The notes: generated by a model not told the origin, from the letters alone. Counted from the first letter of the stretch, positions 1 to 42,406 are shown. The stretch: DNA of 64,000 nt from Chrysomallon squamiferum (GCA_012295275.1 CM022675.1:12090001-12154000), one strand, 5' to 3'. Numbers and translations are program-made.

Positions 1-232
1 CAAAACAGTTACTGATTCAAAGCAATTTTCTGTCTGAGTGCTGTGTGAAAGAAGGATACAACTGGCATCAGGCAAATTCATCTTCATATGTTTTACAGAA
101 AAAAAACCTAAATTTAATCACTAATATAAACCAAAAGCATTATTAAGATTTAGGAATCTGTATACAGATAACTAAAAAAAAAAAAAAAGTAGAAACAGTT
201 TCATCTTTCTACAATAAAAAAAATTATCTTCC

Positions 233-303
<71 letters not shown>

Positions 304-582
304 AATAAAATAAAATAAATAAATAAATAAATATAACAAAAACAAAATGTGAAAACAAAAACAAACTAACAAGCCAGCCATCGAGAACTTCTTTGTAATT
401 TCTTGGTTGTAAATTTTGGACAAATTTAAAAAACAAAAATACCTTATATTTCTAGAACTTCTTCTTATTAAATTTATAATAAATATTTAGAAATATTTGA
501 CACTTCCAAAACTTCTTCTTAGACCCACATCTGCTTGTAAATTTTTTTTTAATAAATATTAAAAAATATCTGACACTTCCAG

Positions 583-3500
583 GAGCCTGGATAATTACTG
601 GAGGAACAAACGCTGGAGTGATGAAACATGTAGGTGAAGCAGTTCGGGATTTCGGTCTGACTGCAAACAAACAGGGTCAAGTCATTGCCATTGGCATAGC
701 ACCATGGGGTTGCATTGATAAAAGACAAGAACTTGTTGACACAAAAGTGAGTAAATATGTTCAGTTATTTTGCTTTATGCATGCTTCTCAAATGGAATAA
801 ATTTGCAGAGAATCATGGAGCTGCTTTCAGAACAGAACAGAACTGAAGTAAATTCATATGTTATTTTCTTTCATGCATGGGCATCTTAAATGAAATCATA
901 GCTTTGACAACAGAAGAGAACTCATAGATGTAAACATTCAATGGACTGCTCATTTTTGACAGCAGAAAAGAATAATTTTATATGAGTATTCTGATGGAGT
1001 ATATATATATGTCAGTGGTCTCCCCATCATTTGTGAAAGGGATGGTGGGAATCGGTGTAATTGGTGCAAGTAATACAAAGGGATGATACAGAAAATGTTC
1101 AGTGTATAACTACTTTGAACAATGTTCAAATTACTTGTTTGTTTAAAATACTCCTATAAATAATAGCAAGTTTATTTTATTTGCATTTAAATAAATTCAG
1201 AGTGTCTGTTTTATTTATTATACAAAAAGAAGTTCACAAAATAAAAGGGTGGCAGATACTGCTGCCATGGTGACGAATGGCAGGCGAACTTGTAAGCTGT
1301 GAAAAAAATTAATAAATGGAAGAAGAAACAATTTATATAAACACTGAGGAATGAATTGATCTTAATCACCGTCATATCTCAGTCGAAATCTTCACAAATA
1401 AAATAATTAATACCCGTTATCTACTTGATATGTTTTCTATAAAAGTGCAGTGTTTATGATTATTTTCCTAAAATATCTGATAATGCAATTTATGTTAAAA
1501 AAAAAGGGACACATATACATGCAAGCATAAATATCTGCATTCACACCCTCACATACTTATATTCTTGTTATATTTTTCAGGGAAAGTGGCCTGCCAGTTA
1601 CAAAATAACAAAGCAGGCAACCAAGAAAGAATGTTTTCTTGATCCTAACCACTCACATTTTATTTTGATTGACAATGGAACACAACATAAATTTGCTGTG
1701 GAAATTCCTTTCAGGCCAAACTGGAGAGTACAATAGCAAATATGAAAACTGATACAGGACAAGGTAAATATATTTTATATTCACTATGAAAGAAAATAAT
1801 AAACTTTAATCAATATTAGCAGGATAATCATAATCTGTGACCATAACTAGTTGCTAAGATTTTAAAGTAATCGTATTTGTAATATAACCCCTATTAGAGT
1901 GAGAGTCTTTTGCACAAACAATTTTGCTTGTATTACATTACCAATAATTTTATTAAGACTTCATTTACATGAATAATACAATTCCTCCCAGATGCTGTCA
2001 GGGTTCCAGTGTGTATGCTGGTTCTTGAAGGGGGACCTGGGACTCTGGAAACCTGCTGTAGTGCCATTGAGAAAGGAACTCCTGCTGTCATCATTAAGGT
2101 ACTGTTCAATTTGTATACTGAATTTGAACAATATATCATCTTTAATAATCTTTAGTTATATGTTTATGGGTGCATCCACTGCAAAATAACATACACTGAG
2201 TAATGAAAATCAGTTATGTTTCCCTTAATGCCCCATTTGACCACTGAAATGTAAGCAAGGTCATGGTTGGGTGAGCAGAAGAAAAGAGATGCCATCCTAT
2301 TTTCAGTTATAACTTTTTTTTTTAATTTTTAGCTGTTTTCTTGCAGTATTTACTGTTTCTGTATCTGTATGAAGAATGTAAAATTTAATAGTGTAGGATT
2401 GTTTGTTACTGAAATTTTTAATTCCATGTATTATGTTACCAGCTCAGTTTGTGACTAAACATTAATGTTGCAAACTTGAATAATGGTAAATATTATTACG
2501 TATAAAATAGGAAGTTATCCTTGCATGGTGTCATTTTATTATGGTCACTATTCCTGTCTCTGTTACAATGTTTAAATGTTTATCTTTTTTAACAGAACAT
2601 TTTATTGTGTAATAAATACTGTAATTTGTCTAGTAAATTTGTCTATAGATTGGTAACTGTCACAAAATTGATTTGTAACCAAATGGGAATACGTAACAAA
2701 AATTACTTGTAACAAAGCATTGTTAATGAAAGGGTGGTGAAATGTCTGGTAACAAAAGTGTTTTATAACAAAATTGGCCCGTAACAAAATGTCCCATACT
2801 CAATTTTCAGGGATCAGGCAGAGCTGCAGACATCTTGGCTTATGCTTATCAGAACTCAAAAGAAGAGGAAGTTGAAAAGTGTGACAAAGAAGGAAGAATT
2901 CAGAAACAGTAAGTATATCTTTTTTAAAGTGTAGCTTATTGTGTTGTTTCTTTACTAGTTTCTTTGTTACATTTTTTTTTTTTTTTTTTTTTTTGTAACA
3001 GCAACCAAACTTTGTTAATAATAAAATATATAATTAAGTAGAAATATTTTGAATGTGTGCATGTGTGTGTGTTTATGTGCAAACTCCAAACTTTGTTAAT
3101 AATAAACTGTTGTAAATGACTTTCTAAAATTTTATTATTTATTACTGATTTTCTTGCTATTATTTTTATCATCATCATTTATTTATTTTATATCAGTGCT
3201 GTTTTCTTTGTTTGTTTTTTTTTATTTTTTTTTTTTAAAATAATTTTACTAAGACAAAACAAGGACCTAAAAAAACTTATCCAAAATTTAAATTTAATAA
3301 ATTTCAAAAAATTACATTTCAGAACTCAGACTGTTATTGATGCTGCTCTGGAAATCGAGATTACAGAGAGGGTGAAGGCTGAATTCACTGACTATGATCT
3401 CACTCAGAGGGTGGGCTGGGTTCGTCAGTGTCTTCAAAACCGAGACCTCCTGACAGTGTTTGAACTGGACTCTAGAAACTCAGCCAGTGATGTAGACATG

Positions 3501-12294: not shown

Positions 12295-15200
12295 TTTATT
12301 TTTATTTTTAATTTTTATTTTTTATATTTTATTTCAGATCTCATACCTCATGTTCCTCATGTTATACAGCTACATTTTACTTGTCGAGTTCAGAAGTACT
12401 TTTTCTCTGTTCGAAGCCATTCTCATTGGCTGGGTTTTCACGATCTTCACTGAAGAAATAAGACAGGTGTTTATGGGAAGTGCAACCTCACTGCGATCGA
12501 AAATGGCTTCGTACTTCACAGATTCCTGGAACATTCTAGACGTCATAACAATTGTTCTTTTCACATTAGGAATGGTCTTGCGCTTCATCCCTGGTGAAAA
12601 CTTTCTCGAAGCAGCGAGGGTGGTTCTGGCTCTGAATCTCGTGTCTTTCTTTCTGCGTATCCTGCACATTTTCTCAGTGAACAAACAGCTAGGACCAAAG
12701 CTTGTCATGATAAAAAGAATGGTAAGAAAGTCACTGTCATCGTCAAACATTTAATTTATTATTTCGTTCATTGATAAATTCACATATATTTTTTTTTTTT
12801 CCCATTACTAATTCATTCATTCGTTGCTTCTTTCATTAATTCAGTAATTTTTTTCATTATGAGTTAATTAATTCATTCATTCACTCGTTCATTCACTAAC
12901 TCTGTTTGTTTTTCAGCTGGAAGATCTCTTGTCCTTTGTCATAATTCTCATGGTGTTTATCCTGGCATATGCAATTGCTTCAGAGGCCATTTTGTATCCA
13001 AACGCTCCTTTTGACTCATACTTGCTTTTCTACACAATTCGCAAAGCCTACTGGACAGTATATGGAGAACTCTTTTTGCAAGAACTGGAAGCCTCAATTG
13101 GTAAGAAAATTCATTTTTCATCTTTCCACTATTTGACATAAGCACTACAATCTTCTGACACAAATGAAAACTATGGTAGAAGTATCTACCTAGGCATCGT
13201 ACTGAATTGTTTTAAATATTATACCAGACACAAGAGATAGATACATTTCATTTTTGTCGTAATGGAATACCAGAGTTTATATATATATATATAACAGCTA
13301 AAAAGGTTACCATAGGTAGGGAAAAAATCATAAGAGTGGTCAGTATAACAATTATTGAAGGTATTTGAGAGGTTAAATTACATTCTTATTGTGCTATTAG
13401 TTATATCTATTAAATACAATGAGTTTTTGCTTGCACTGATTTTGACATAATTATGTGAAGAAATTTATCTCTTGGTTGGATGAAATAAATACAAAGGGAT
13501 GCGACTCTACCTTGATGAATTTAGTTATTAACTGCAGTACACTATACCTATACTCAAACTATTAATAAATGAGAACAGTGATATGGATAAATAACAAATA
13601 CATCATACTGTTCACCATGCATGTATGTAAGGGATTTCACAACAATAATAATGGGAATTGTAAACTTGATAAACCTGTGGTAACCTGTAGGTTACCAGGT
13701 CCTATTTTGTGGTAACCTCTAAATGGGTTACCAGACATGATTCTTATTTCAATGCCTGTTACAGCAAACATGTTGATACAGAACTCTTATACTGAACTAC
13801 TGCAGCTTATCTGTTCATAAATTTCAGGTAATCTTTTTATGCTACAAGTAATGTTTTGATATACTGCAGCTAATCTTTTGATATAATACAGCAGATCTGT
13901 TCATATATTACAGCTAACGTGTTGATATAATACAGCTAATGTGTTGATATATTGCATCTAATGTGTTGATATATTGCATCTAATGTGTTGATATATTGCA
14001 GCTAATGTGTTGATATATTACAGCTCATGTGTTGATACATTGCATCTTATGTGTTTACATATTACAGCTAATATTTTGATATTAGATATTAAACAATATA
14101 ACTAAGAATATGTTACAGCAAATCTGTTAATATTATTACAGCAAACAAGTTGATATATTGCAGCTGTGTTGCTATATCCCAGATAATTCATATATTATAG
14201 GTAATACGATGATTTTTCACAACTAATGTCTTGATTATATTACTTCTAACATATTACTTTATTACATCTAATGTGTTGATATATTACAGCAAATGTGCTA
14301 ATGTATTGATATATCACAGCTAATGTGCTGATATATTACAGCTAATATGTTGATAGTAGATACCAAAAATACGACTAAAGTATATAGTTAATGTTTTGAT
14401 ACATTGTAGCCAATGTTCTGATATATTGCAGCTTATGAGTTGATATTAGATATTAAAGATAAAACCTAAGATATGTTATAGCAAATATGTTGACATATGA
14501 CAGCTAACATGTTGATATATAACTGCTAATGTGTTGATATATGACAGCTTATGTATTGATATATTACAGTTCATGTGTAAATATATTACAGCTAATGTGT
14601 TGATATATTACAGCTAATGTATTGATATTTTACAGTTCATGTGTAAATATATTACAGCTGTGTTGATATATTACAGTTCATGTGTAAATATATTACAGCT
14701 AATGTGTTGATATATTACAGTTTATGTGTAAATATCTTACAGCTAATGTATAAAAATATCTTACAGCTAATAACGACTGCACAAATGACCCAGCTCTCTT
14801 TGCTGACCACAAGAGTCTGAGATGTCCATCTGAAGTTGGGAAATACCTTGTACCAGTACTGATGGGAATCTACATCTTGCTCACTAATGTCCTCCTGCTC
14901 AATCTACTCATTGCTATGTTCAGGTTAGTTGAAATCAGATATCTGTTTTTGCATCAGTAGCTATATTGTAATGTCTAGATGATTTATATCATCGTATTGT
15001 ATATCATGAAGTCAAAAATATTATAATTATTATATCATGAAATTAAATGTGTATTGTTGTATCATGAAGGTATATATATATGTATATATATATATAGGAA
15101 GCTACACTCTGTATTATCATATCTCATAGTATGATATGAAAATAAATATTTATTGGCATATTGTAAAGTCAGATATTTATTTTTATATTAAATTATATTG

Positions 15201-16162: not shown

Positions 16163-19100
16163 ACTACTAATTTACCAAAAGCTATATTTATTTAGTCATC
16201 ATATCTTGCCTCTGCACACAGTGATTGTAGTGTTAATGTTACATGTTTAAATAGTTTTATGATAAAAATAAACTGAATTTTTCCTAGCTAACTACTTAAA
16301 TAAAAAATTTTAAAATTACATTAAATAACATAAAATAGAAAAAATATAATAAAAATTTCAGTTATTTGTTTGAACAAATGTAACAAAACACTGAAAGTGA
16401 AACATCTGACATTTTGTTTTTCAATTCATCTCATATTAATGTATAAGAAAAAGCTTATGTTATAATATTACAAATTTATTAACAATTTTGTGGCAAAAAA
16501 ATGAACAGAATATATCTTACCTAACAGCATTGATAAATAAATAAACAAAGAAATTTCAGATATGTGTTTGAACAATGCAGCAAATCACCAGTAGTATTTG
16601 CAAATTTGTTTAATTTCACATCATATTAATGTATTCAAAAAGTTTATGTTATAATTTTTTGGTTAAAATTAAAACAAATGTTTTTTTATTTTTAGCTATA
16701 GCTAACTACATAAATAAATAAACAAATAAATAAACAAAACATTTTCAGTTATGTATTTGAGCAAATGCAACAAAACACTGATAGTATCTGGAAGTTTGTT
16801 CGACTTCATGTCATACTAGAATACTGCAGACGACCAGCTTTACCTCCTCCATTGATCATCTTCGAACATGTTAAAATGTTGTTCGCTCTCTGTTGTCACA
16901 AAAACAAATTCTACAACTCCAAGTTTAGTAAGTGGCTGCTGTTGTTGTTAATGTTCCTTAGTAACCCAGTGTCATTGTTGCGGTTGCCATTGTAGATATT
17001 TTATTATTATTATTTTTTATTTTTTCATTGTTGTCCTAATAGTGGATGTGGTAGCCATGTTTGTTTTCTTTATTGTTATGTTAATAAATGTTTGTTTTGG
17101 GGTGTTTTTTTTTTAATTGTTCTCCTAATAATTGTCCCTTTATTATGATGTGTTGCCATTGTAGCAATGTTTGTCTTCTTTTTTATTATTATTATTATTT
17201 ATTTTTTATTTTTTCTAATTGGTGGTGTCTTTGTTATGATGCAGTTGCTGTATTTCCCAAGTTTGGCTTTTATTATTAAGAACTTTTTTTTTTTTGATTA
17301 ATTGTTGATCCTAATAATGATCCTTTTGTGTATTGGCATATTTTAGTGTTTTGTTTTTGATTATAGGATAAGATTAGGCATCAATTTATGTTTATGTCTA
17401 AAGTCTTAAATAATTAATTTAATACTGAAAATCATTTAAAAAAAAAAATTAAATGCAACAAACAACACAAATAAGCAAGTAAGTAAATATGTGTTTAAGA
17501 TTTTTATTTATTTACTTTTACATGTGCAGATTTGAATTGTTTTAGTTTATTTTGTTTAATTAATTTTTTCAAGAGGTCTGAATAAATTTGTTCAGTTGAT
17601 AATATACAATATTTTACTTGTTTGTAATTTCATTTTAATTTAGTTTTTTTTTAATACTACCTTTATTTTTTTTTTTTTATTATTATTATTTTTTTTTTAA
17701 ATATATTTTTAAGAATATATATATTTCATCTTCAATAATTTTATTTTATTTATATAATAAATTCATTATAAATGCATAAAAAATGCTTTTCATTTTGATA
17801 CCAATTCTGTATATAATATATATAAAATATATATATATATATTCACACATATGAGTAATAAATAAATAAATTAATTAATTAATAAAAAAAGGGAATATTA
17901 TAGGTTTTTATGTAAGTATATCATTCATCACATCAGCTTCAAGTATGTCACAGCAACTGCTGTCATTGATTTGATGTGCAGGGTCAACCACACATACTTT
18001 CTTTCTTCTGCTTCAGATCCTTTTTCAGTTTCCTTTGTTGTTGTTGTTGTTGTTGTACATGTTCTGTTTTCACTTGTTTCGTGCTCAGCTACACTTTCCA
18101 AATGATACAAGACAAGACCAGTGACTACTGGAACTACCAGCGATTCCAGCTGGTTGTCGAATACAACTCCCGCCCGCCTCTGCCACCTCCCTTTATTGTC
18201 CTCACCCACCTCTGGCAGTTGCTCAAAGCCACTGTGTTCCGATGTTGTTGTTCCCAAACGAAACCATCCAGTGATTTGTGTGAGTTTGTAAACCTTTGTT
18301 TTTGTGTTATTGCTTAGCTACCTCTTAGTGCTTTATAAGCAGATATGCCAACTGAAAAATTAATTGCAGTGATATCAATGGTCGACGGTTTCAAGATTTT
18401 GGGTCTTCTCAAAATATTTTTTGTTATGCTTAGTGCTTTACTTAATAATATCCCTTTACCAGGCCTAAACTATTATGCATCTGACAGAAAAGAAAAGAAA
18501 AGAAAAATTAATAATAATAATAAAGAAAAAAGTAACTTATAGTCAGTCTCATTGTAATTGTTTAATGAAAGCCCTAATGTCTTGTAATTAAATTTAAAAT
18601 TGTGATACTTGGCATTTCTGCATTATAAGTAATTACAGTGATTACAAATTGTAATAGAAACTTAATGTTGTGATGTTAAATATAACCTTTCCATTGTATA
18701 ATTTGTAGTGTCTTGCTTTAAAGTTATTCAGTTATTGTAACTGATAATAAAAAGTTTATGTTGTGAGTTAAATATAACCTTTATTGTATTGTTGTAATAT
18801 CTTGCTTTAAAGTTTTTAAAATAAAATGTTTATGTTGGAATTTTTATATTTTATAAATGTAAACTGTTTCTTTGTCAGCAGTCGTAATTTTAATATTTAA
18901 TATTTAATATATTACTTTTAAAGTTAATAGTAATAATTGTTGATTTGAAATGAAGGTTATTATTATTGTCTTCTTCTTATTATTGTTGTAAAAATAATCA
19001 TTTTCAAATGTGGAGTTGATTTAAATTATTATACATCAAAATATTATCTAAGCTTTAAATTGTAATCGTATGGATGTTTTGCCAAAATGTTTATTTTATA

Positions 19101-21182
19101 TTATTATTTTTTTTAATATTTTCCAGAATTATACCATTAATATTTATGCACTTTACTTTATCTAAATTTTGAATCTTAAAATGTTTTATTCTCTTACTTT
19201 AATGTTGATTTCAATCAGGCGTAAAATTTGACAACAAGCTTGAGGAGAAACAGCTTGTCCAGTGGGAGAATGTCATAGCTGACTCCTACAGGAGTGCTGA
19301 GGAGCAGAGTGAATTTGAAAGTTTAGGAAACCAAGTCAAGATCTCCTTAAACAGGTATATCCATTGAGTTTTGTGTAGCTGTGATTCCTTTGAACCATCT
19401 AGTTTTGTATAACTCTGATTCTTTTGAACCATTGGGTTTTGTATAACTATAACTGTCATTCTTTTGAACCATTGGGCTTTGTATAACTGCGATTGTTTTG
19501 AACCATTGGGCTTTGTATAACTGATTCTTTTGAACAATCAGGTTCTGTGTAATTGATTCTTTTGAACAATCAGGTTCTGTGTAACTGATTCTTTAGAACC
19601 ATCAGGTTTTGCATAACTGATTATTTGGAACCATTTGGTTTTACATAACTGTGATTCTTTTAAACCATTGGGTTTTGTATCGCACCGATGTTTTTGAATA
19701 CTTGCAAATATGTCACTTTACTTAATTTATTTTATGTAAAGTGGATGCATGTACAATGTACAATAAATTACTTTATGAAGACTGGATGAACGTGCAATAT
19801 ACAATAATTTATTTTACATTGACTGGATGATCCTACAATGTGCAGTAATTTGTTTTGTTTAAACGTATGGTGTACAGTTATTTTTCAAAGTGTGGACACA
19901 TGTACAATGTACAATAATTTAATTAATGTAGACTGGATGCTGTAATGGCCAAGGTGGACGAACTGCAGGAAGGTCAGTCTGGTGGCCTGAATCTCTCCAT
20001 GAGCATGTCCAGACAAAGAACAAATTTAAAATTTCCATCACAGACTGAAATGAGACTTGAAAAACTTGAGGATCAGGTAACAGCATTATTTGTTTATATC
20101 TGATAGAGGTCTTCCTTTGTTGTTTTATTTAATTATTATTATTATTATTATTGTTATTATTATTATTATTTTATTTTTTTAATTTTTTTTTATTATTGTT
20201 ATTATTTTTTTTAAAGTGAAATACAAATAAAGGAGATAAAACATATCCATTTTTCTTTTGATGTTGGTTAATCAAATAGTTGGGATGAAATTATTATGTA
20301 ATATTATTTTTTACTATAATTTTATAGCAGTTTAAAACTTCATGATACTATGATCATTGAAAAGATCCATATATAATAAAAAGATTTCATTTCACATTTT
20401 TCTTTTCTCATCAGTCCTGTGTTCATATTTGTTTTGGTTTTTTTCTAAGTAATGGCCAATCACATTTTTGTTTTCTCTCCAGTACAGTTATTATTATCAG
20501 TAATGTGTGTTCACATTTTGGTGTTGTCAGATTTGACAGTTCACATTTTTGTTTCCTTGTTTCAGATGATGAACACTTACAAAGCACTGAACTGGATAAT
20601 GCAGTCTATGACAGAAAACAAAATGGGAAGCAAGCCCCCACTTTTACCAGATTTACAGAAACAACGAGACAATGGTACACTTTTAGATTTACGATTAATA
20701 TTCATAAATTAATTCAAAATGACTAGTTCCTGTAATTAATATTCATAAATTAATTGAAAATGATTAGTTCCTGTAATTAATCACATCATTTTAAATTTAA
20801 AATCTCTTAAGGAAAGGCAAACAAAAAAAACAAAAATGTTGCTAATAAATTTATTTTGTTTTTAAATTTCTTTAAATTGTTATTGTATAATAATGTCTAA
20901 AATTATCTTATTATTATGACTTTAAATACATACCAGAATGTTACTGTTTGAATGAGAATTACTGTACTTAAAAAAAGAAATTTCAACTAACTTAAGGCCT
21001 TTATTTTTCATTTATTTTGCTAATAAATTTCTTTAAATTGTTATTGTATAATAATGTCTAAAATTATCTTATTATTATGACTTTAAATACATACCTGAAT
21101 GTTACTGTTTGAATGAGAATTACTGTACTTAATAAAAGAAATTGTGAATTGTTTTAATTCATCTAACTTAAGACCTTTATTT

Positions 21183-21213
<31 letters not shown>

Positions 21214-21417
21214 TGTTCCAGAGAGAGAAGTATCTGCTTATTTTATTTTATTACAGAAATCAGCCGTACTAAATTAAATTATATAAATCTTTGTTTTTAT
21301 CATTTTTTGACTTAATTATTGTTATTATTATTATTATTATTTTTTTTTTTTGTATTCATTTTATTTCTTTATTTAATTTTAACCTGTTTGTTAAAGTTTG
21401 TTATCATGATGATGGTG

Positions 21418-21461
<44 letters not shown>

Positions 21462-21819
21462 CCTCTTTACAAAGGGTTATTGTTTTGTTGTTATTTTATT
21501 TTGATTTTTATTACTTTTTATATAATTACCTTTAAGATAATATTTAAGCATCATCTTTTGTGTCATAAAATTAATGAAAATAAAATTTAGCTTTCAAGTG
21601 AAATATAATACAGACAGTAAGTAAACAAATAATAGTAAGAAAACGGAAAAAAAAATTACAAAAACGTCTCTAAAGATTTTAATTTTATTTTATATTAATT
21701 AGGCCAGAGATGATGTAGAAGCTGCATTGTGGCAGACAATGACATCAACAATCCATCTGCATGGAGCTCACGAGAAATTCCTACGTCTCATAGCTGAGAA
21801 GCTTAATGCTCCATTTTAA
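583..21819 (+). CDS. TRPM2: TRPM2-like cation channel, copy 1 (5' exons outside window; 1-bp frameshift near 1714 is either an assembly error or pseudogenising)
   Basis: GT-AG exons in continuous phase apart from the 1714 indel: 583-746, 1581-1763, 1992-2098, 2811-2908, 3323-3525, 4026-4126, 4605-4739, 4998-5051, 5937-5954, 7927-8140, 8417-8535, 9258-9358, 10073-10298, 10777-10896, 11506-11570, 12030-12132, 12338-12721, 12917-13100, 14767-14923, [16749-16927 or 18089-18279], 19219-19354, 19932-20076, 20566-20674, 21222-21229 (or -21265), 21703-21819. TRPM motifs: GAWIITGGTNAGVMKHVGEA, LDPNHSHFILIDNG, LEGGPGTL, GSGRAAD, LALAWNRIDIA, LFIWAVL, S2 EEIRQ and S3 WNILD Ca2+ site, LGPKLVMI, pore YWTVYGELF, S6 NVLLLNLLIAMF, TRP box, coiled coil. 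The last exon resembles the NUDT9-H C-terminus. Confidence 0.9.
5937..5954 (+). CDS. 18-nt in-frame microexon of TRPM copy 1 (RKRTIK)
   Basis: tttttatttttacag|AGAAAACGAACAATCAAA|gttagt; phase 0-0 between exons 4998-5051 and 7927-8140. Confidence 0.65.
8592..9200. repeat. Composite intronic repeat: ~64-bp unit alternating with (CT)n tracts
   Basis: gcccctcatggatgtattcatattgtattattctgtctaatggtttctctcagtctgtttgtc at ~8842, ~8933 and ~9052, separated by (CT)n; an older degenerate copy at ~8600. Confidence 0.9.
13790..14771. repeat. Degenerate ~22-bp intronic minisatellite (consensus atattacagctaatgtgttgat)
   Basis: Dozens of tandem copies, e.g. 14581-14750; the last unit provides the real acceptor ttacag|ctaat at 14766/14767. 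Confidence 0.9.
14985..15800. repeat. Two further degenerate intronic minisatellites
   Basis: Recurring tattgttatatcatgaagtcaaa-like units (14985-15310) and accatatattctgtccca-like units (15480-15800). Confidence 0.6.
16270..16748 (+). pseudogene. Two decayed partial copies (pseudo-exons) of TRP-helix exon A with their acceptors
   Basis: atttcag|ttatttgtttgaacaaatgTAAcaaaacactga (16362) and atttcag|atatgtgtttgaacaatgcagcaaatcac (16560) versus the true exon attttcag|ttatgtatttgagcaaatgcaacaaaacactga (16749); ~190-200 bp period. Confidence 0.8.
16749..16927 (+). CDS. TRP-helix/TRP-box exon, variant A
   Basis: (S)YVFEQMQQNTDSIWKFVRLHVILEYCRRPALPPPLIIFEHV...; tttcag acceptor, gtaagt donor, 179 nt, phase 2 to 1. 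Confidence 0.88.
18089..18279 (+). CDS. TRP-helix/TRP-box exon, variant B
   Basis: (S)YTFQMIQDKTSDYWNYQRFQLVVEYNSRPPLPPPFIVLTHL...; ctcag acceptor, gtgagt donor, 191 nt, phase 2 to 1. Confidence 0.88.
19360..19700. repeat. ~31-33-bp intronic minisatellite
   Basis: About 10 units of tgattcttttgaaccattgggttttgtataac immediately after the donor at 19354. Confidence 0.9.
20840..21180. repeat. Near-perfect tandem duplication of ~130 bp
   Basis: aaatttctttaaattgttattgtataataatgtc...gagaattactgtacttaa at ~20864-20971 and ~21025-21132. Confidence 0.85.
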
Positions 21820-25335: not shown

Positions 25336-25547
25336 GTATGGTAGGATTTGTATGGTGTTGTATCTGGGTTTGTTTCGTTTATGACACACCTGCCGAGTGT
25401 CCGAAAATTACCGATCTAGAACGGAGATATATAGAATCGTCCCTCAAAAGTAAAGGTCATAGAGTTAAGGCAAGTTTTAAATTGCCCTTTGATAATAATT
25501 CGGTTTATTTTATCTGAGATACATACACAGGGGAAGGTACACACGCA

Positions 25548-25584
<37 letters not shown>

Positions 25585-26490
25585 AATTCCAAATTATTAC
25601 TTTGCTGTCTGGGGCAAATTATTACAGTAAAAGAAAATAAATAAATGCTGCCATTTTATTCCTCTCCATATGTAGTTGTGACGTCATCGTTTACATGGCG
25701 GACTAATCGCTCTTTTTTTTTTGTTCCCGTTTTTCTTTTTTCCTGTTTTTTCTATTTTTATTTTTCCTTTTTTAAAACCTGACCTAAAATTAACTTCAAA
25801 GCAAATCGGTCCTCGGTTGTACTATATATCCTTACAACTATGCCCGATCAGTAAGTAGTCTGGTATGATTACGTCTGCTTGTGAAGAGTAACGTCCCTTG
25901 TCAGTTTTAAGTGAATTATGGGCTCTTTTGCGCGGACAAGAATTCAGATGTGACTAGTCCCAGAATGTGTTTGACGTGACTTAATGATGTTTTGTTTTTC
26001 TGGGTAATCTTGCAGCTGAAATCTACCCCTTGTTAGCAGAGATCTTGCGCCATATTTATTAATTTGCTAAAGATTAATTATTTGTTTTACTGATGTAAAA
26101 AAGGTCATCAAAAAAAATCCCATTTTCAGTTGTTATTGCTATTACATATGACTGGTACATTTGATGATATTGTTATTACTAATATTTCATTTATAAATTT
26201 ATTACTCTTGTTGTTACTGATAATTTTACGTAGATAACGACACCCATTTTGAAGCACTAATCTTTGGAACATTTGTATTAAATTGGAATATTGCTGTTGT
26301 TCTTAACTTCCAGGGAACTGCAGAAGAATGGCAAGTGACCTTTTTCATTGCCGCTGGTGTATATGTCTTCGGTGCTACGTTTTACACCGTATTTGGCACC
26401 GCTGACATACAAGACTGGGCAGCAGTTAATAAAGTAATGGAAGAAATTGACGCGGGCCCAGATACTTCTTTTCGGAACTCATCCAATTAA
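25336..26490 (+). pseudogene. SLC17 (sialin/MFS anion transporter)-like gene relic, only two exons
   Basis: Exon 25336-25469 GMVGFVWCCIWVCFVYDTPAECPKITDLERRYIESSL (TM6/central loop; probable GC donor aag|gcaagt). Terminal exon 26314-26490 GTAEEWQVTFFIAAGVYVFGATFYTVFGTADIQDWA...stop (TM12). AATAAA at ~26539. No other SLC17 exons were found. Confidence 0.75.
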
Positions 26491-29490: not shown

Positions 29491-31041
29491 AAACCAATAA
29501 AAACCAAATAAAATGCTGAATAGTTATTGCATTAACTTCAGCATAGTTTCTTCCTTTATCTTAATGTCAGAATTATTCTTTCAACGATAATTTTATAATT
29601 AAGATTCTTACTGTCATAATTTAGTACATCTTATGCAATCAAATTTTTTGTTTGCTTGTTTCCTTATTGAAAAAATTAACATTTAACATATTTTAATATT
29701 AATGTTTATGTATGTCAGTTGATCTTTTTTTTTTTTTTGTGCAAGTTTGTATTCATATAATAATTAGTTAAATTTTACTCTTTGTAGAATGAAGACATAG
29801 CCTGGATCCGAAGCAACTTTAAAAAGAGAGAATGTGCTTGTTTTATCAAACAGCCAGAGTAAGTTGATGCTAAGATTTATTAATAATCATAAAAATAATT
29901 TAAAAAAAATATATAAAGTAACAATAAATAAAATAAAAAAATAAAAAAAACTCTCTTCTGGGATTTATTTTATATTAAGATTTAATATTTAAATTTAGAT
30001 CAGTTATGACTTAATTCCTATCCTAGATTTTCTTTCCTTTTATGATGAAGTAGAAACAAACTATAAAAACAAAGTATAGATTATGTTTAAGAAAATAACC
30101 CCAGTCAGCTATTAAACTTTTGTTCTAGAAAGATAAATTATTGATGCACCAGTACATATACAGAATATTGACCTTTTAACAAATGCATTCTTTTTTGTAA
30201 AAATAAATAATTAACAAAATAGAAAACCCTTCTTTAGTCCTTTTGACAGGGTATACTCAATAAAATCTTGATCGAATGGTATCTTATTATTCTGTGTCAC
30301 ATTACTCTAAGTATGAGGATAGGAGTGAAACATAGTAATAAAGGAGATAAAATTTTCATGGTGAAACTTTATTAAAAACATTTTTGATATTTATTGCACT
30401 ATAACTGTGACTGGTTTTAAATGACTGGCATTTTCTAAGTGTTTTTTTAACACTGAAACTATCAGATGCTTTTCAAATAACTCATTTATTTACAGTAATA
30501 ATGATGCAGATCCACTATGTCAGTGTGGATATCCAAAATCTGGACATCAGGACAAATTTATAGTGAAGGAAGGTGCGATATGGAAAACAAATGAAAACAC
30601 CAAAAACATATCCAACAGACTTTTTGGAGAAATTGAATTTTCTGGCTTAGGTGACAAAGTCTCAAAAGTAAGGAAAATTTTTTGTGTGATGGTGCATGTG
30701 CATATTTTTTTTTGTTTATGAGACTGTATATATGTTTGTTATTCACATACATATCTGTATCTATAATCAGTGTATCTTTATATGTATCTCTTACAAATCT
30801 ATATCGATATCAGTGAATCTTCATATGTATCTCATCTAGATATCTGTATCTGTATCTGTATCAGTGTACCTTTATGTGTATCTCACAAACATATCTGTAT
30901 CTCTCTATAATCAATATATCTTTATATGTATCTCTCATATACATATCTGTATCAATGTATCTTTATATGTATATATCTTTGGGTCTCTAATATGTCTATA
31001 ACTTTGTGCCTAAACATATAGATCCACCTACACCTTTATTT

Positions 31042-31097
<56 letters not shown>

Positions 31098-31241
31098 TGT
31101 GTGTGTGTGTGTGTGTGTGTCTTTGTCTTTACATGTATTTGTTTCTCTACTTTTCTGTGTAATTTAATTATGTAAAAGGATTCAAATGACTTTATTTTAT
31201 GCAATCTTGAGTCATTGACACACTCACGCATGCATGCGTGT

Positions 31242-31278
<37 letters not shown>

Positions 31279-31973
31279 TACTGAGAGATGCACACACAAT
31301 ATGTTGTATACAAATTCAGACATGTTTGGGTATACACAAAACAATATTTTATTCACAACCTAAAACATATAATTACATTTTTTTAATGAATATTTTACTA
31401 CATTATTGATTCTATGTATTTTTTTTTTCTTTAATTTAATTTTTATTTATTATCAGTACATTCGTGTAGATGTAGACACTGACGTTGAAAAGGTTGTAAA
31501 GCTGATGGTTGACAATTGGGGTCTTGTGAAACCTAACTTACTCATTTCTGTGACTGGTGGTGCTCAGACCTTTCACTTGAAAACTAGACTGAAAGATGCT
31601 TTCAAACGAGGTCTCATGAAAGCTGCCCTCAGTACAGGTAAGCTAATTTTTACCTGTGTTATTTCTAAACAGTCGTTCAGACTCACGTATCTCTGTCTAT
31701 ATCTGTGTATCTTCAAATGTGTCTGTCACATAATATCCCTCATTTAATATCAAAACAGTTACTGATTCAAAGCAATTTTCTGTCTGAGTGCTGTGTGAGA
31801 GAAGGATACAATTGGCATCAGGCAAATTCATCTTCATATGTTTTACAGAAAAAAAACCTAAATTTAATCACTAATATAAACCAAAAAAGCATTATTAAGA
31901 TTTAGGAATCTGTATACAGACAATCAAAAAAAAAAAAGTAGAAACAGTTTCATCTTCCTATAATAATAATAAT

Positions 31974-32036
<63 letters not shown>

Positions 32037-35000
32037 AATATAACAAAAACAAAATGTGAAAACAAAAACAAACTAACAAGCCAGCCATTGAGAACTTCTT
32101 TGTAATTTCTTGGTTGTAAATTTTGGACAAATTTAAAAAAAAAATACCTTATATTTCTAGAACTTCTTCTTATTAAATTTATAATAAATATTTAGAAATA
32201 TTTGACACTTCCAAAACTTCTTCTTAGATCCACATCTGCTTGTAAATTTTTTTTAATAAATATTTAAAAATATCTGATACTTCCAGGAGCCTGGATAATT
32301 ACTGGAGGAACAAACGCTGGAGTGATGAGACATGTAGGTGAAGCAGTTCGGGATTTCGGTCTAACTGCAAACAAACAGGGTCAGGTCATTGCCATTGGCA
32401 TAGCACCATGGGGTTGCATTGATAAAAGACAAGAACTCGTTGACACAAAAGTGAGTAAATATGTTCAGTTATTTTGCTTTATGCATGCTTCTCAAATGGA
32501 AATAAATTTGCAGAGAATCATGGAGCTGCTTTCAGAACAGAACAGAACTGAAGTAAATTCATATGTTATTTTCTTCCATGCATGGGCATCTTAAATGAAA
32601 TCATAGCTTTGACAACAGAAGAGAACTCATAGATGTAAACATTCAATGGACTGTTCATTTTTGACAGCAGAAAAGAATCATTTTATATGAGTATTCTGAT
32701 GGAGTATATGGATATCAGTGGTCTCCCCATCATTTGTGAAAGGGATGGTGGGAATTGGTGTAATTGGTGCAAGTAATACGAAGGGATGATACAGAAAATG
32801 TTCAGTGTATAACTACTTTGAACAATGTTCAAATGACTTGTTTGTCTAAAATACTCCTATAAATAACAGCAAGTTTATTTTATTTGCAGTTAAATAAATT
32901 CAGAGTGTCTATTTTATTTATTATACGAAAGAAAGTTCACAGAATAAAAGGGTGGCAGATACTGCTGCCATGGTGACGAACGGCAGGCGAACTTGTAAGC
33001 TGTGAAAAAAATAAATAAATGGAAGAAGAAACAATTTATATAAAAACTGAGGAATGAATTGATCTTATGTACCATCATATCTCAGTCGAAATCTTCACAA
33101 ATAAAATAATTAATACCCATTATCTACTTGATATGTTTTCTATAAAAGTGCAGTGTTTATGATTATTTTCCTAAAATATCTGATAATGCAATTTATGTTA
33201 AAAAAAAAGGGACACATATACATGCAAGCATAAATATCTGCATTCACACCCTCACATACTTATATTCTTGTTATATTTTTCAGGGAAAGTGGCCTGCCAG
33301 TTACAAAATAACAAAGCAGGCAACCAAGAAAGAATGTTTTCTTGATCCTAACCACTCACATTTTATTTTGATTGACAATGGAACACAACATAAATTTGCT
33401 GTGGAAATTCCTTTCCGGGCCAAACTGGAGAGTACAATAGCAAATATGAAAACTGATACAGGACAAGGTGAATATATTTTATATTCACTATGAAAGAAAA
33501 TAATAAACTTCAATCAAAATTAGCAGGATAATCATAATCTGTGACCGTAACGAGTTGCTAAGATTTTAAAGTAATCGTATTTGTAATATAACCCCTATTA
33601 CAGTGAGAGTCTTTTGCACAGACAATTTTGCTTGTATTACATTACCAAGAATTTTATTAAGACTTCATTTACTTGAATAATACAATTCCTCCCAGATGCT
33701 GTCAGGGTTCCAGTGTGTATGCTGGTTCTTGAAGGGGGACCTGGGACTCTGGAAACCTGCTGTAGTGCCATTGAGAAAGGAACTCCTGCTGTCATCATTA
33801 AGGTACTGTTCAATTTGTATACTGAATTTGAACAATATATCATCTTTAATAATCTTTAGTTATATGTTTATGGGTGCATCCACTGCAAAATAACATACAT
33901 TGAGTAATGAAAATCAGTTATGTTTCCCTTAATGCCCCATTTGATCATTCAAACCACTGAAATGTAAGCAAGGTCATGGTTGGGTGAGCAGAAGAAAAGA
34001 GATGCCATCCTATTTTCAGTTATAACTTTTTTTAATTTTTAGCTGTTTTCTTGCAGTAATTACTGTTTCTGTATCTGTATGAAGAATGTAAAATTTAATA
34101 GTGTAGGATTGTTTGTTACTGAAAGTTTAATTCCATGTATTATGTTACCAGCTCAGTTTGTGACTAAACATTAATGTTGCAAACTTGAATAATGGTAAAT
34201 ATTATTACGTATAAAATAGGAAGTTATCCTTGCACGGTGTCATTTTATTATGGTCACTATTCCTGTCTCTGTTACAATGTTTAAATGTTTATCTTTTATA
34301 ACAGAACATTTTATTGTGTAATAAATACTGTAATTTGTCTAGTAAATTTGTCTATAAATTGGTAACTGTCACAAAATTGATTTATAACCAAATGGGTATA
34401 CGTAACATGATTACTTGTAACAAAGCATTGTTAATGAAAGGGTGGTATTGAAATGTCTGGTAACAAAAGTGTTTTATAACAAAATTGGCCCGTAACAAAA
34501 TGTCCCATACTCAATTTTCAGGGATCAGGCAGAGCTGCAGACATCTTGGCTTATGCTTATCAGAACTCAAAAGAAGAGGAAGTTGAAAAGTGTGACAAAG
34601 AAGGAAGAATTCAGAAACAGTAAGTATATCTTTTTAAAGTGTAGCTTATTGTGTTGTTTCTTTACTAGTTTCTTTGTTACATTTTTTATTTTATTTTTAT
34701 TTTTTTGTAACAGCAACCAAACTTTGTTAATAATAAAATATATAATTAAGTAGAAATATTTTGAATGTGTGCATGTGTGTGTGTTTATGTGCAAACTCCA
34801 AACTTTGTTAATAATAAACTGTTGTAAATGACTTTCTAAAATTTTATTATTTATTACTGATTTTCTTGCTATTATTTTTATCATCATCGTTTATTTATCT
34901 TATATCAGTGCTGTTTTCTTTGTTTGTTTTTTTTTATTTGTTTTTTTTAAAATAATTTTACTAAGACAAAACAAGGACCTAAAAAAACTTATCCAAAATT

Positions 35001-35052
35001 TAAATTTAATAAATTTCAAAAAATTACATTTCAGAACTCAGGACTGTTATTG
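29213..35052 (+). CDS. TRPM2: TRPM2-like channel, copy 2 (start codon to MHR region; truncated by assembly gap)
   Basis: Exons 29213-29347 (MTARITPID...), 29788-29858 (AWIRSNFKKREC), 30496-30667 (CQCGY...FGEIEF), 31457-31637 (YIRV...PNLLISVTGGA), 32287-32450, 33284-33467, 33696-33802, 34522-34619, 35035-gap; phases continuous. Confidence 0.88.
31751..35052 (+). repeat. Segmental duplicate of window positions 1-3340
   Basis: Exons and introns align base for base with offset ~31.7 kb (caaaacagttactgattcaa at 1 and 31751); scattered SNPs and small indels. Confidence 0.97.
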
Positions 35053-35252
35053 NNNNNNNNNNNNNNNNNNNNNNNNNNNNNNNNNNNNNNNNNNNNNNNN
35101 NNNNNNNNNNNNNNNNNNNNNNNNNNNNNNNNNNNNNNNNNNNNNNNNNNNNNNNNNNNNNNNNNNNNNNNNNNNNNNNNNNNNNNNNNNNNNNNNNNNN
35201 NNNNNNNNNNNNNNNNNNNNNNNNNNNNNNNNNNNNNNNNNNNNNNNNNNNN
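35053..35252. other. Assembly gap (200 N)
   Basis: Run of exactly 200 N, probably an arbitrary scaffolding spacer. Confidence 0.99.
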
Positions 35253-38200
35253 AACGTTTTTGCCCACACTCGCCCCGACGGCGCGCACCTTTTGCACACG
35301 TTGAAATATTTTTCCCGACCGCACGGAATAGTGCCACACGGATTTTCAACTTTTGAAAATCGAATTTTTTCAAGTTTCGTTGAAAATGCTAGGGGTACCT
35401 TTTTCAAAGTGCAATAACTTTTTCTGAGCACGTGGGAAAAATCGGGCGCGCACATACAAAAAAAGTGGGGCAAGGTTGCCCGACACGGGTGAAAAGTGCC
35501 GCACGCGCCACCCAAGGGGAACAACAACTGTTTCCGACACGTGCACAAAAAACGCACATATTTTGAAAATTTGCTCGTTTTTTTTTCAAACGCATTTTCA
35601 AAAGGTGCAGCACCTTTGGTAAATGTTGGAAACGTTTTTGCCACACTCGCCCCGACGGCGCGCACCTTTTGCACACGTTGAAATATTTTTCCCGACCGCA
35701 CGGAATAGTGCCACACGGATTTTCAACTTTTGAAAATCGAATTTTTTCAAGTTTCGTTGAAAATGCTAGGGGTACCTTTTTCAAAGTGCAATAACTTTTT
35801 CTGAGCACGTGGGAAAAATCGGGCGCACATACCCAAAAGTGGGGCAAGGGTTGCCCGACACGGGTGAAAAGTGCCGCACGCGCCACCCAAGGGGAACAAC
35901 TCGTTTCCGACACGTGCACAAAAAACGCACATATTTTGAAAATTTGCTCGTTTTTTTTTCAAACGCATTTTCAAAAGGTGCAGCACCTTTGGTAAATGTT
36001 GGAAACGTTTTTGCCACACTCGCCCCGACGGCGCGCACCTTTTGCACACGTTGAAATATTTTTCCCGACCGCACGGAATAGTGCCACACGGATTTTCAAC
36101 TTTTGAAAATCGAATTTTTTCAAGTTTCGTTGAAAATGCTAGGGGTACCTTTTTCAAAGTGCAATAACTTTTTCTGAGCACGTGGGAAAAATCGGGCGCA
36201 CATACCCAAAAGTGGGGCAAAGGTTGCCCTACACGGGTGAAAAGTGCCGCACGCGCCACCCAAGGGGAACAACTCGTTTCCGACAACACGCACAAAAACG
36301 CACATATTTTGAAAATTTGCTCGTTTTTTTTTCAAACGCATTTTCAAAAGGTGCAGCACCTTTGGTAAATGTTGGAAACGTTTTTTTGCCACACTCGCCC
36401 CGACGGCGCGCACCTTTGCACACGTTGAAATATTTTTCCCGACCGCACGGAATAGTGCCACACGGATTTTCAACTTTTGAAAATCGAATTTTTTCAAGTT
36501 TCGTTGAAAATGCTAGGGGTACCTTTTTCAAAGTGCAATAACTTTTTATCTGAGCACGGGAAAAATCGGGCGCACATACCCAAAAGTGGGGCAAGGGTTG
36601 CCCTACACGGGTGAAAAGTGCCGCACGCGCCACCCAAGGGGAACAACTCGTTTCCGACACGTGCACAAAAAACGCACATATTTTTGAAAATTTGCTCGTT
36701 TTTTTTTCAAACGCATTTTCAAAAGGTGCAGCACCTTTGGTAAATGTTGGAAACGTTTTTGCCACACTCGCCCCGACGGCGCGCACCTTTTGCACACGTT
36801 GAAATATTTTTCCCGACCGCACGGAATAGTGCCACACGGATTTTCAACTTTTGAAAATCGAATTTTTTCAAGTTTCGTTGAAAATGCTAGGGGTACCTTT
36901 TTCAAAGTGCAATAACTTTTTCTGAGCACGTGGGAAAAATCGGGCGCACATACCCAAAAGTGGGGCAAGGGTTGCCCTACACGGGTGAAAAGTGCCGCAC
37001 GCGCCACCCAAGGGGAACAACTCGTTTCCGACACGTGCACAAAAAACGCACATATTTTGAAAATTTGCTTTTTTTTTTTTTTCAAACGCATTTTCAAAAG
37101 GTGCAGCACCTTTGGTAAATGTTGGACGTTTTTTTTGCCACACTCGCCCCGACGGCGCGCACCTTTGCACACGTTGAAATATTTTTCCCGACCGCACGGA
37201 ATAGTGCCACACGGATTTTCAATTTTGAAAATCGAATTTTTTTTCAAGTTTCGTTGAAAATGCTAGGGGTATTTTTTTTTTCAAAGTGCAATAACTTTTT
37301 TTCTGAGCACGTGGGAAAAATCGGGCGCACATATAAAAAAGTGGGGCAAGGGTTGCCCGACACGGGTGAAAAGTGCCGCACGCGCCACCCAAGGGGAACA
37401 ACTCGTTTCCGACACGTGCAAAAAACGCACATATTTTGAAAAAATTTGCTTTTTTTTTTCAAACGCATTTTCAAAAGGTGCAGCACCTTTGGTAAATGTT
37501 GGAAACGTTTTTGCCACACTCGCCCCGACGGCGCGCACCTTTTGCACACGTTGAAATATTTTTCCCGACCGCACGGAATAGTGCCACACGGATTTTCAAT
37601 TTTGAAAATCGAATTTTTCAAGTTTCGTTGAAAATGCTAGGGGGGTATAACTTTTTTCAAAGTGCAATAACTTTTTCTGAGCACGTGGGAAAAATCGGGC
37701 GCACATACCCAAAAGTGGGGCAAGGGTTGCCCTACACGGGTGAAAAGTGCCGCACGCGCCACCCAAGGGGAACAACTCGTTTCCGACACGTGCACAAAAA
37801 ACGCACATATTTTTGAAAATTTGCTTTTTTTTTTCAAACGCATTTTCAAAAGGGGCAGCACCTTTGGTAAATGTTGGAAACGTTTTTGCCACACTCGCCC
37901 CGACGGCGCGCACCTTTTGCACACGTTGAAATATTTTTCCCGACCGCACGGAATAGTGCCACACGGATTTTCAATTTTTGAAAATCGAATTTTTTCAAGT
38001 TTCGTTGAAAATGCTAGGGGTACCTTTTTCAAAGTGCAATAACTTTTTCTGAGCACGTGGGAAAAATCGGGCGCACATACCCAAAAGTGGGGCAAGGGTT
38101 GCCCTACACGGGTGAAAAGTGCCGCACGCGCCACCCAAGGGGAACAACTCGTTTCCGACACGTGCACAAAAAACGCACATATTTTGAAAATTTGCTCGTT

Positions 38201-41200: not shown

Positions 41201-42322
41201 TTTTTTTCAAACGCATTTTCAAAAGGTGCAGCACCTTTGGTAAATGTTGGAAACGTTTTTGCCACACTCGCCCCGACGGCGCGCACCTTTTGCACACGTT
41301 GAAATATTTTTCCCGACCGCACGGAATAGTGCCACACGGATTTTCAATTTTTGAAAATCGAATTTTTTCAAGTTTCGTTGAAAATGCTAGGGGTACCTTT
41401 TTCAAAGTGCAATAACTTTTTCTGAGCACGTGGGAAAAATCGGGCGCACATACCCAAAAGTGGGGCAAGGGTTGCCCTACACGGGTGAAAAGTGCCGCAC
41501 GCGCCACCCAAGGGGAACAACTCGTTTCCGACACGCACACAAAAACGCACATATTTTTGAAAATTTGCTCGTTTTTTTTTCAAACGCATTTTCAAAAGGT
41601 GCAGCACCTTTGGTAAATGTTGGAAACGTTTTTGCCACACTCGCCCCGACGGCGCGCACCTTTTGCACACGTTGAAATATTTTTCCCGACCGCACGGAAT
41701 AGTGCCACACGGATTTTCAATTTTTGAAAATCGAATTTTTTCAAGTTTCGTTGAAAATGCTAGGGGTACCTTTTTCAAAGTGCAATAACTTTTTCTGAGC
41801 ACGTGGGAAAAATCGGGCGCACATACCCAAAAGTGGGGCAAGGGTTGCCCGACACGGGTGAAAAGTGCCGCACGCGCCACCCAAGGGGAACAACTCGTTT
41901 CCGACACGTGCACAAAAAACGCACATATTTTTGAAAATTTGCTCGTTTTTTTTTCAAACGCATTTTCAAAAGGTGCAGCACCTTTGGTAAATGTTGGAAA
42001 CGTTTTTGCCACACTCGCCCCGACGGCGCGCACCTTTTGCACACGTTGAAATATTTTTCCCGACCGCACGGAATAGTGCCACACGGATTTTCAATTTTTA
42101 AGAACCTAATATTTTCAAGACGCGATGAAAATGCAAGTGGTACCTTTTTCAAAGTGGAAGAACTTTTTATTGGCACGTGGCAAAAATGGGGCACTCGTAC
42201 CCAAAAGTGAGGGAAGGGTTTCCCGACACATATTTTAAAATTTACTTTGTTTTTCTTTCTCATGCATTTAAAATATGTGGCGCACCTTTTGTAAATGTTG
42301 AAAACGTTTTTGCCGCACTCGC
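35253..42322. repeat. CpG-rich tandem satellite, ~375-bp monomer, 18 full units plus one diverged, shortened unit
   Basis: aacgtttttgccacactcgccccgacggcg recurs at 35253, 35631, 36004, 36377, 36752 ... 41626, 41999, 42303; units differ mainly in homopolymer length. Confidence 0.98.
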
Positions 42323-42406
42323 CCCTAACCTTCACCCAAACCCTCTAACCCTAACCCTAACCCTAACCATGTAACCCCCTAACGCTAATCCTAAACCTAA
42401 CCTAAC
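42323..42406 (-). repeat. Degenerate telomere-type (TTAGGG)n tract
   Basis: + strand ccctaaccttcacccaaaccctctaaccctaaccctaaccctaaccatgtaaccccctaacgctaatcctaaacctaacctaac; three consecutive perfect CCCTAA at 42349-42366. Confidence 0.8.

Follow-up and report, generated by a model that had tools for sequence, protein, structure and literature searches.

An apparently mutually exclusive, undescribed exon pair at the gate-coupling helix of molluscan TRPM2-like channels

The TRPM2-like gene and its two homologous exons

The window (the whole stretch of Chrysomallon squamiferum DNA analysed here, 64,000 nt; GCA_012295275.1 CM022675.1:12090001-12154000) opens with a gene that, judged by its sequence, is a gastropod TRPM2-like (TRPM-beta) channel. 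With the TRPM2-like protein of Gigantopelta aegis (P0001) as a tblastn query, exons could be laid out over window positions 500-21800 (Table 1). They carry the N-terminal MHR/SLOG and TRPM2-like domains (PF18139, E 7e-17; PF25508, E 3.7e-16), and S1-S6 followed by the TRP helix were recognised from tblastn to P0001 and from the PDB matches of two homologous exons, A and B. We found the residues of the Ca2+ site in the motifs EEIRQ (S2 Glu and Gln) and WNILD (S3 Asn and Asp) of the S1-S4 exon, and the Glu that the TRP helix contributes to this site (position 24, numbered as below) is common to window A and window B. The best match of the abalone A isoform in the structural database was Nematostella nvTRPM2 (PDB 6CO7, 1054 bits). 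The original prediction had named a TRPM2-like channel, and on this the Pfam domains, the S1-S6 layout, the Ca2+ residues and the Gigantopelta match agree.

Table 1. Features of the TRPM2-like locus in the window, and RefSeq isoform pairs from other molluscs
Feature	Window position or accessions	Strand	Evidence and remarks
N-terminal (MHR) exon with 1-nt deletion near 1712 and a stop within the exon	1581..1762	+	comparison with second copy
Constitutive pore-to-S6 exon, ending ...LLNLLIAMF, phase-2 donor	14767..14923	+	tblastn, 84% to P0001 aa 1056-1104; splice sites; 5' edge placed by AG and reading frame
Decayed part-copy 1 of exon A 5' half, with acceptor	16362..16500 (end approximate)	+	stops, indels
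Decayed part-copy 2 of exon A 5' half, with acceptor	16560..16690 (end approximate)	+	stops, indels
Alternative exon A	16749..16927	+	179 nt; AG before, donor GTAAGT; weak acceptor; phase 2 to 1
Alternative exon B	18089..18279	+	191 nt; AG before, donor GTGAGT; phase 2 to 1
Next constitutive exon (rib helix), takes A or B in phase 1	19219..19354	+	tblastn, RNA contig
Constitutive exon, start of coiled-coil region	19932..20076	+	joined to both neighbours in RNA contigs of 3/3 RNA runs
Last exon before the missing NUDT9-H block	20566..20674	+	tblastn, RNA contigs
Terminal exon, last 38 aa of NUDT9-H	21703..21819	+	tblastn; out of frame with 20674
Second copy, covering the 5' part of the gene; frame open at the site of the first copy's shift	29788..35052	+	tblastn; cut by N gap at 35053
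Haliotis isoform pair	XP_048236492.1/XP_048236491.1
Pomacea isoform pair	XP_025081224.1/XP_025081227.1
Crassostrea virginica isoform pair	XP_078332505.1/XP_078332504.1
Mizuhopecten isoform pair	XP_021362499.1/XP_021362498.1
Pecten isoform pair	XP_033724836.1/XP_033724821.1

Exons A and B each encode the end of S6, the TRP box, the TRP helix, a PPP stretch and the re-entrant helix. Their coordinates, peptides and AG/GT ends bear out the description of two intact, homologous and strongly diverged exons: in a pairwise alignment they agree at 16/42 amino acids and 64/126 nucleotides. Against solved TRPM structures, both peptides align at the end of S6 and the TRP helix, B with a best E of 5e-13 and A with one of 1.4e-10, and a Pfam search with the two exons by themselves gave no domain match. 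The best database match of B is the Gigantopelta aegis TRPM2-like protein, at 75%. Both lengths are 2 mod 3, and the frames S6-A-next and S6-B-next are open. The product that includes both exons meets a stop 5 codons into B and the product that skips both meets one 4 codons into exon 19219, as anticipated by the original prediction that using both or neither would shift the frame. The same prediction credited both exons with good splice sites; the AG and GT ends are indeed present in each, but this wording is too generous for A, which has 37% pyrimidine in its acceptor tract where B has 74%. The AG acceptors of the two decayed part-copies upstream of A (16362-16690) are possible decoy splice sites.

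The copy of the gene that lies in the window is damaged. Compared with the second copy, one nucleotide is deleted, which shifts the frame and soon leads to a stop, and most of its NUDT9-H domain is missing: amino acids from about 1300 to 1567 are absent and the last 38 codons remain, out of frame. The product would end ...QRDNGQR, because the join of 20674 to 21703 puts the terminal exon out of frame. NUDT9-H motifs were present in 5/5 orthologues examined that carry A or B. The second copy, cut by a 200-N gap, is a tandem duplicate or a haplotype; over 3358 nt, its identity to window 1-3339 is 95.9%. In RNA run X4, one contig (depth 3) makes the 20674-21703 join with the window's alleles and has no differences over 56 nt; the channel predicted from this join would stop behind the coiled coil. 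Run X1, which does not cover exon 20566..20674, yielded two versions of the last exon, in contigs that depart from the window by 1 and by 10 differences, and RNA contigs that differ from the window continue into sequence resembling the missing exons. At 11 tallied amino-acid differences, a count that omits two in a gapped region and one split codon, the read allele equalled Gigantopelta 8 times, the window once and neither twice. Given the deletion, the missing NUDT9-H, the two read versions and this tally, we consider the window copy to be probably a young duplicate, either a decaying pseudogene or a channel that does without NUDT9-H. The original prediction overlooked this damage, and its claim that one gene makes two channels is consequently safer for the orthologous gene than for the damaged copy in the window.

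Between the two TRPM copies lie the last exon of an SLC17 (sialin-like) transporter (window 26314-26490, E 2.7e-7) and, 0.9 kb from it, an earlier SLC17-like exon recognised by eye at about 25350-25480; this looks like another partial gene. Further along are a GC-rich satellite (window 35253-42229; 18.6 copies of a 374-nt unit, 96% matches), then, near 42320-42400, a few CCCTAA repeats like those of telomeres, and, at 50808-50880, an ORF start that we take to resemble the amphiphysin/BIN N-terminus.

Use, distribution and age of the pair

We found B joined to exon 19219 and onward in one contig of RNA run X3 (depth 4.95). The join is read as 18279 to 19219 because the six intervening letters equal the X1 alleles at 19220-19225, and the junction 18279>19219, one of those that the original prediction proposed to count, is thus seen in one contig. 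The contigs of the three RNA runs miss A and the 5' part of B, at a depth of about 5-13 in the neighbouring exons, and give no evidence either way for these segments. For A, a 2360-nt contig encodes a Logan protein (P0237) that extends from an oyster-type A exon across the exons behind it and on through NUDT9-H; the continuity of this contig implies a spliced A transcript. Use of A in the window species itself we infer from these relatives. Spliced contigs thus exist for each type, B here and A in the oyster type.

We searched with the C-terminal channel region of Gigantopelta and examined the best 120 of 1213 proteins. Among these 120, a B-like segment was present in most mollusc hits and an A-like segment in Littorina, Batillaria, Lottia, two scallops, Saccostrea cucullata and Mactra. 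A Nucella gene model (P0013) holds A and then B; its A is trimmed and fused in frame to B, probably an annotation artefact of the same pair. Across 20 mollusc protein clusters, both forms occurred in 5, A alone in 1 and B alone in 14, among the members listed (15/75 for Magallana, 15/27 for Mytilus). The five species with both forms are Haliotis, Pomacea, Crassostrea virginica, Mizuhopecten and Pecten, each represented by predicted RefSeq isoform models that are identical outside one block of 56-63 amino acids, which begins behind LLIAMFS and extends as far as the next exon. The A and B isoforms are therefore already present in RefSeq, unremarked. Among the members listed, A is the minority form in 4/5 species with both, and the sole form in 4/4 full-length S. 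cucullata models and 3/4 Pomacea models. No A form was found among the members listed for heterobranch snails, Patella, Babylonia, chiton, mussels, Argopecten, Ruditapes, Dreissena and Mya, where annotation gaps are likely. In profile searches outside the molluscs, run against protein libraries that collapse isoforms, 18/205 new proteins favoured the A profile by >10 bits; by their similarity, these 18 are read as mollusc-like.

A genomic counterpart that does not depend on annotation came from a metagenome contig, L001, one of 2 loci retained from 76 pattern matches; the other locus (L002) was rejected as a further pair, being a chance 16-aa match. The S5 exon of L001 is bivalve-like, 80-82% identical to Mactra and Ruditapes proteins. 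It is followed in order by S6, A (185 nt) and B (206 nt), both again 2 mod 3 and in the same phases as in the window, with the same donors (GTAAGT for A, GTGAGT for B), and joining A to B is out of frame and runs into stops. In the window as in L001, we thus see neighbouring homologous exons of like length and identical phases, the pattern by which tandem exon duplication is recognised. GC3 is lower in A than in B at both loci (window, 0.34 vs 0.85; L001, 0.41 vs 0.62).

Several mechanisms of exclusion were considered. Steric exclusion was rejected, since A-B introns of 1161 nt (window) and 1109 nt (L001) greatly exceed the length at which it could operate, and so was U2/U12 incompatibility, since all sites are GT-AG with U2-type donors. 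For exclusion by docking/selector RNA pairing, 1/18 duplex tests beat all 20 shuffles, about what multiple testing leads one to expect, and the pairing concerned would loop out A. Intron conservation between the window and L001 was absent in 3/3 comparisons. Competition between splice sites likely sets the choice of A or B, and products with both exons or neither would be removed by nonsense-mediated decay.

The age of the pair was addressed with trees of 44 columns, in which most A/B labels were set from sequence and the L001 exons were labelled by position. In the first tree, the 12 A rows formed a clade (99/96) and the 30 B rows a group (87/75). In the second, to which L001 and five A hits were added and from which 10 near-duplicate or long rows were dropped, the corresponding values were 100/97 for 18 A rows and 80/72 for 24 B rows, and the first exon of L001 fell in A and the second in B. 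The A clade was present in all 200 bootstrap trees checked. Similarly, window A is identical to abalone A (Haliotis isoform X2) at 31/44 positions (70%) and to its own B at 17/44. A separate duplication in each of 7 species was rejected (AU p=7.6e-5, 19 rows); separate gastropod and bivalve duplications (p=0.136, 19 rows, 44 columns) stayed above rejection, and a duplication in the window lineage (p=0.060 and 0.063) fell short of 0.05. Because the A exons form one clade, the pair most likely arose by a single duplication before gastropods and bivalves split. That split lies some 500 million years back. In chiton and octopus, the corresponding segments group with B, so that the origin might be older still. 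Together, the five isoform pairs, the L001 layout, the spliced contigs and the trees that sort by type uphold the original proposal of mutual exclusion and long-term selection on both exons.

Residue contrasts at the gate and TRP helix

To compare the two forms, we took the exon's first Tyr as position 1, which corresponds to human TRPM2 1050 and TRPM8 981. The mapping derives from HMMER alignments to solved chains; the TRPM8 chain is one ahead, as checked at K995, R998, Y1005 and R1008. Counts refer to 12 A, 30 B and 13 outgroup rows. Position 4 is Glu in 12/12 A, and in B it is Gln in 25/30 and Glu in 3/30 (including Pomacea B); Glu also occurs in 3/13 outgroups, so that Glu4 is no absolute switch. 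Position 6 is Met, Thr or Leu in all A and Ile or Val in 30/30 B, and position 13 is Ile in every A and His or Tyr in every B. A basic residue (Lys or Arg) occupies position 15 throughout A, and in B at most once (1/30, Pomacea). Gln17 is found in 0/12 A and 27/30 B; position 18 is Arg in 30/30 B, and Arg (7), Gln (4) or Asn (1) in A. Leu21 is likewise absent from A (0/12) and invariant in B and the outgroups (30/30 and 13/13). Position 26 is Cys or Ser in 12/12 A, and Trp14, Tyr25, Arg28 and His40 are kept in all twelve. In the larger set of 18 A rows, the exceptions are Leu21 in 2/18 and His or Cys at position 15 in 2/18, and the Ca2+ Glu24 is replaced by Asp, Asn or Tyr in 8/18. The Mactra-like A exons (L001 990-1174; P0078, P0239) have Tyr or Asn in place of this Glu, and in those of caenogastropods Gln takes the place of the TRP-box Arg.

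The conserved signature of A is accordingly Glu4, Ile-Trp-[Lys/Arg] and no Gln17, and that of B is mostly Gln4, [His/Tyr]-Trp-non-basic and Gln17-Arg18. The contrast originally drawn, WKFVR versus WNYQR, reflects the window species' own versions and is not the contrast that is conserved across species. From the position counts, each exon appears to keep a different part of the ancestral box.

Position 4 aligns with human TRPM2 Q1053 and position 24 with E1073; positions 6, 15 and 18 align with TRPM8 V986, K995 and R998. The roles of these residues are taken from vertebrate TRPM2 and TRPM8. In passages of PMC6759353, human TRPM2 Q1053 restricts the pore and E1073 binds Ca2+. According to passages of PMC9805079, K995Q and R998Q lower the PIP2 sensitivity of TRPM8, and V986A/G/F are non-functional. 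Passages of PMC8145809 report that the gate opens through a flip of the TRP helix and the S4-S5 linker and that the TRP-box basic side chains of Nematostella TRPM2 face away from lipid; there, in 2021, the PIP2 site on TRPM2 is described as unresolved. Because A and B differ consistently at residues aligned with the TRPM2 gate and with the TRPM8 PIP2 and linker sites, A and B channels likely gate differently.

Interpretation and comparison with known systems

Our results suggest a real, ancient and apparently undescribed pair of mutually exclusive exons at the gate-coupling helix. The explanation we favour, and hold to be probable, is that A and B are tandem duplicates of the exon for the S6 end and TRP helix, used one at a time, and that swapping them likely alters how Ca2+, ADP-ribose and PIP2 open the pore. 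B would be the usual form and A a regulated minor form produced through the weaker exon. In a channel made with A, the inner gate would carry four Glu where most B have Gln, the basic residue of the TRP box, lost from B, would be retained, and the TRP-helix face of Gln, Arg and Leu preserved in B would be altered; the swap would then shift PIP2 and Ca2+ dependence and the open probability. The window copy would be a young duplicate, decaying or lacking NUDT9-H, and the swap itself would be carried out by the intact gene. A bolder version, which we advance tentatively and rate as possible rather than probable, holds that two TRP helices have existed since before snails and bivalves split, each bearing one half of WKFQR: A with the Lys and an acidic gate, B with the Gln-Arg and a neutral gate, so that splicing flips PIP2/Ca2+ coupling. 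If this is true, the A exons of some lineages carry natural counterparts of well-known loss-of-function mutants (Arg998-to-Gln, loss of the Ca2+ Glu), and nature offers a ready-made chimera series for the PIP2 site on TRPM2 and for TRP-helix gate opening.

Other readings bear on separate parts of this account. For the window alone, we judge the scales to be level on whether its copy is a pseudogene whose A and B owe their intact state to a recent duplication, the working pair residing in the other copy. The deletion near 1712 with its early stop and the absence of amino acids about 1300-1567 fit such decay, as do the 95.9% identity of the second copy, the X1 last-exon versions with 1 and 10 differences, the contigs unlike the window that run into missing-exon-like sequence, and the excess, 8 against 1, of derived residues on the window side; however, short runs of bases adjoin the deletion, which an assembly error could explain, and the depth-3 contig joins 20674 to 21703 as the window copy predicts. 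Nematostella TRPM2 without NUDT9-H still gates (passages of PMC5671594), and the domain has been lost repeatedly (passages of PMC13143021). In either case, the conserved exon pair is left untouched. That this pair arose twice, in gastropods and in bivalves, with the likeness of the A exons due to retained ancestry or convergence, seems to us quite improbable: the AU value of 0.136 tolerates it and several A traits (Ile13, basic 15) are ancestral, but the A clade (100/97, all 200 bootstrap trees checked), the shared derived traits at positions 6, 17, 21 and 26, and the agreement between the window and L001 in exon order, phases and donor hexamers argue for one origin.

The function of A admits two further readings. 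A real and conserved pair could include an A that leaves gating untuned and works in mixed A/B tetramers as a subunit that is silent or modulatory, or that affects trafficking or assembly. The absence from A of residues invariant or nearly so in B and the outgroups (Leu21 0/12, Gln17 0/12, Arg18 in 7/12), the substitutions of Glu24 by Asp, Asn or Tyr in 8/18 A exons, the non-functional or unresponsive TRPM8 mutants at V986 and R998 (passages of PMC9805079) and the minority status of A in 4/5 species with both, among the members listed, all point this way. We nevertheless consider it unlikely, given that Trp14, Tyr25, Arg28 and His40 persist in 12/12 A, that A retains the ancestral Ile-Trp-Lys lost in B, and that A is the sole form in 4/4 full-length S. 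cucullata and 3/4 Pomacea models among the members listed. Barely credible is a dead relic of an exon that gene predictors sometimes pick up: A is open and conserved in 18 sequences from two classes, is spliced into the multi-exon contig product P0237 and is 70% identical between the window snail and abalone, and these observations outweigh the weak window acceptor (37% pyrimidine), the decayed neighbours and the fact that some A-type proteins are unreviewed gene models.

We thus return to one gene with two gating modules, used one at a time; that both versions are kept across gastropods and bivalves implies long selection on them. As isoforms, A and B amount to natural helix-swap chimeras on an identical background. 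In the original prediction, such exons were not known to have been described for TRPM2, and our search agrees: in the passages covered of the open literature on TRPM evolution and splicing and of mollusc TRP surveys (PMC6137742, PMC7143563, PMC13483504, PMC12980990, PMC13143021, PMC8004665, PMC8539334, PMC9886277, PMC4843867), we found no description of the pair, although supplements could mention the isoforms. In these passages, insect TRPL, Pyx and TRPM variants are N-terminal, and Pieris TRPgamma has a 9-nt variant of the TRP domain. The oyster, scallop and abalone surveys, in the parts covered, leave the pair unmentioned. Because these surveys count genes, they could have overlooked a switch between isoforms in response to heat or oxidative stress.

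The junction of S6 and the TRP helix is a conserved coupling element of TRPM channels, normally encoded by a single exon. In AMPA receptors (flip/flop) and in Nav and Cav channels, duplicated mutually exclusive exons swap a gating module and have long been conserved; these are other channel families and other segments, and the likeness is one of analogy only. The closest known channel, Nematostella nvTRPM2 (6CO7, TRPM-beta), resembles the mollusc gene in its MHR, S1-S6, TRP helix and S2-S3 Ca2+ residues, and in NUDT9-H as found in the orthologues; it differs in that no alternative TRP-helix exon is mentioned in passages of PMC5671594, PMC8145809 and PMC13143021, and in that the window copy is without most of NUDT9-H. 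Among duplicated exons, passages of PMC4843867 describe exons 12 and 13 of Drosophila TrpA1, likewise in a TRP channel, as mutually exclusive, similar in length and able to change activation (heat sensitivity); unlike A and B, they encode 36-37 amino acids before S1, and in a TRPA channel. A mollusc example is exon 10 of the Crassostrea virginica alternative oxidase, a tandem duplicate used alternatively with one stress-induced form, but this is an enzyme's terminal exon and not a frame-locked internal pair in a channel (abstract of PMC5589949). Within the TRPM family itself, mammalian TRPM3 shows that splicing can retune a channel, the length of its pore loop setting selectivity; in passages of PMC9886277, this is achieved with an alternative 5' site and with cassette and alternative first exons, and a duplicated TRP-helix exon is not among the forms described.
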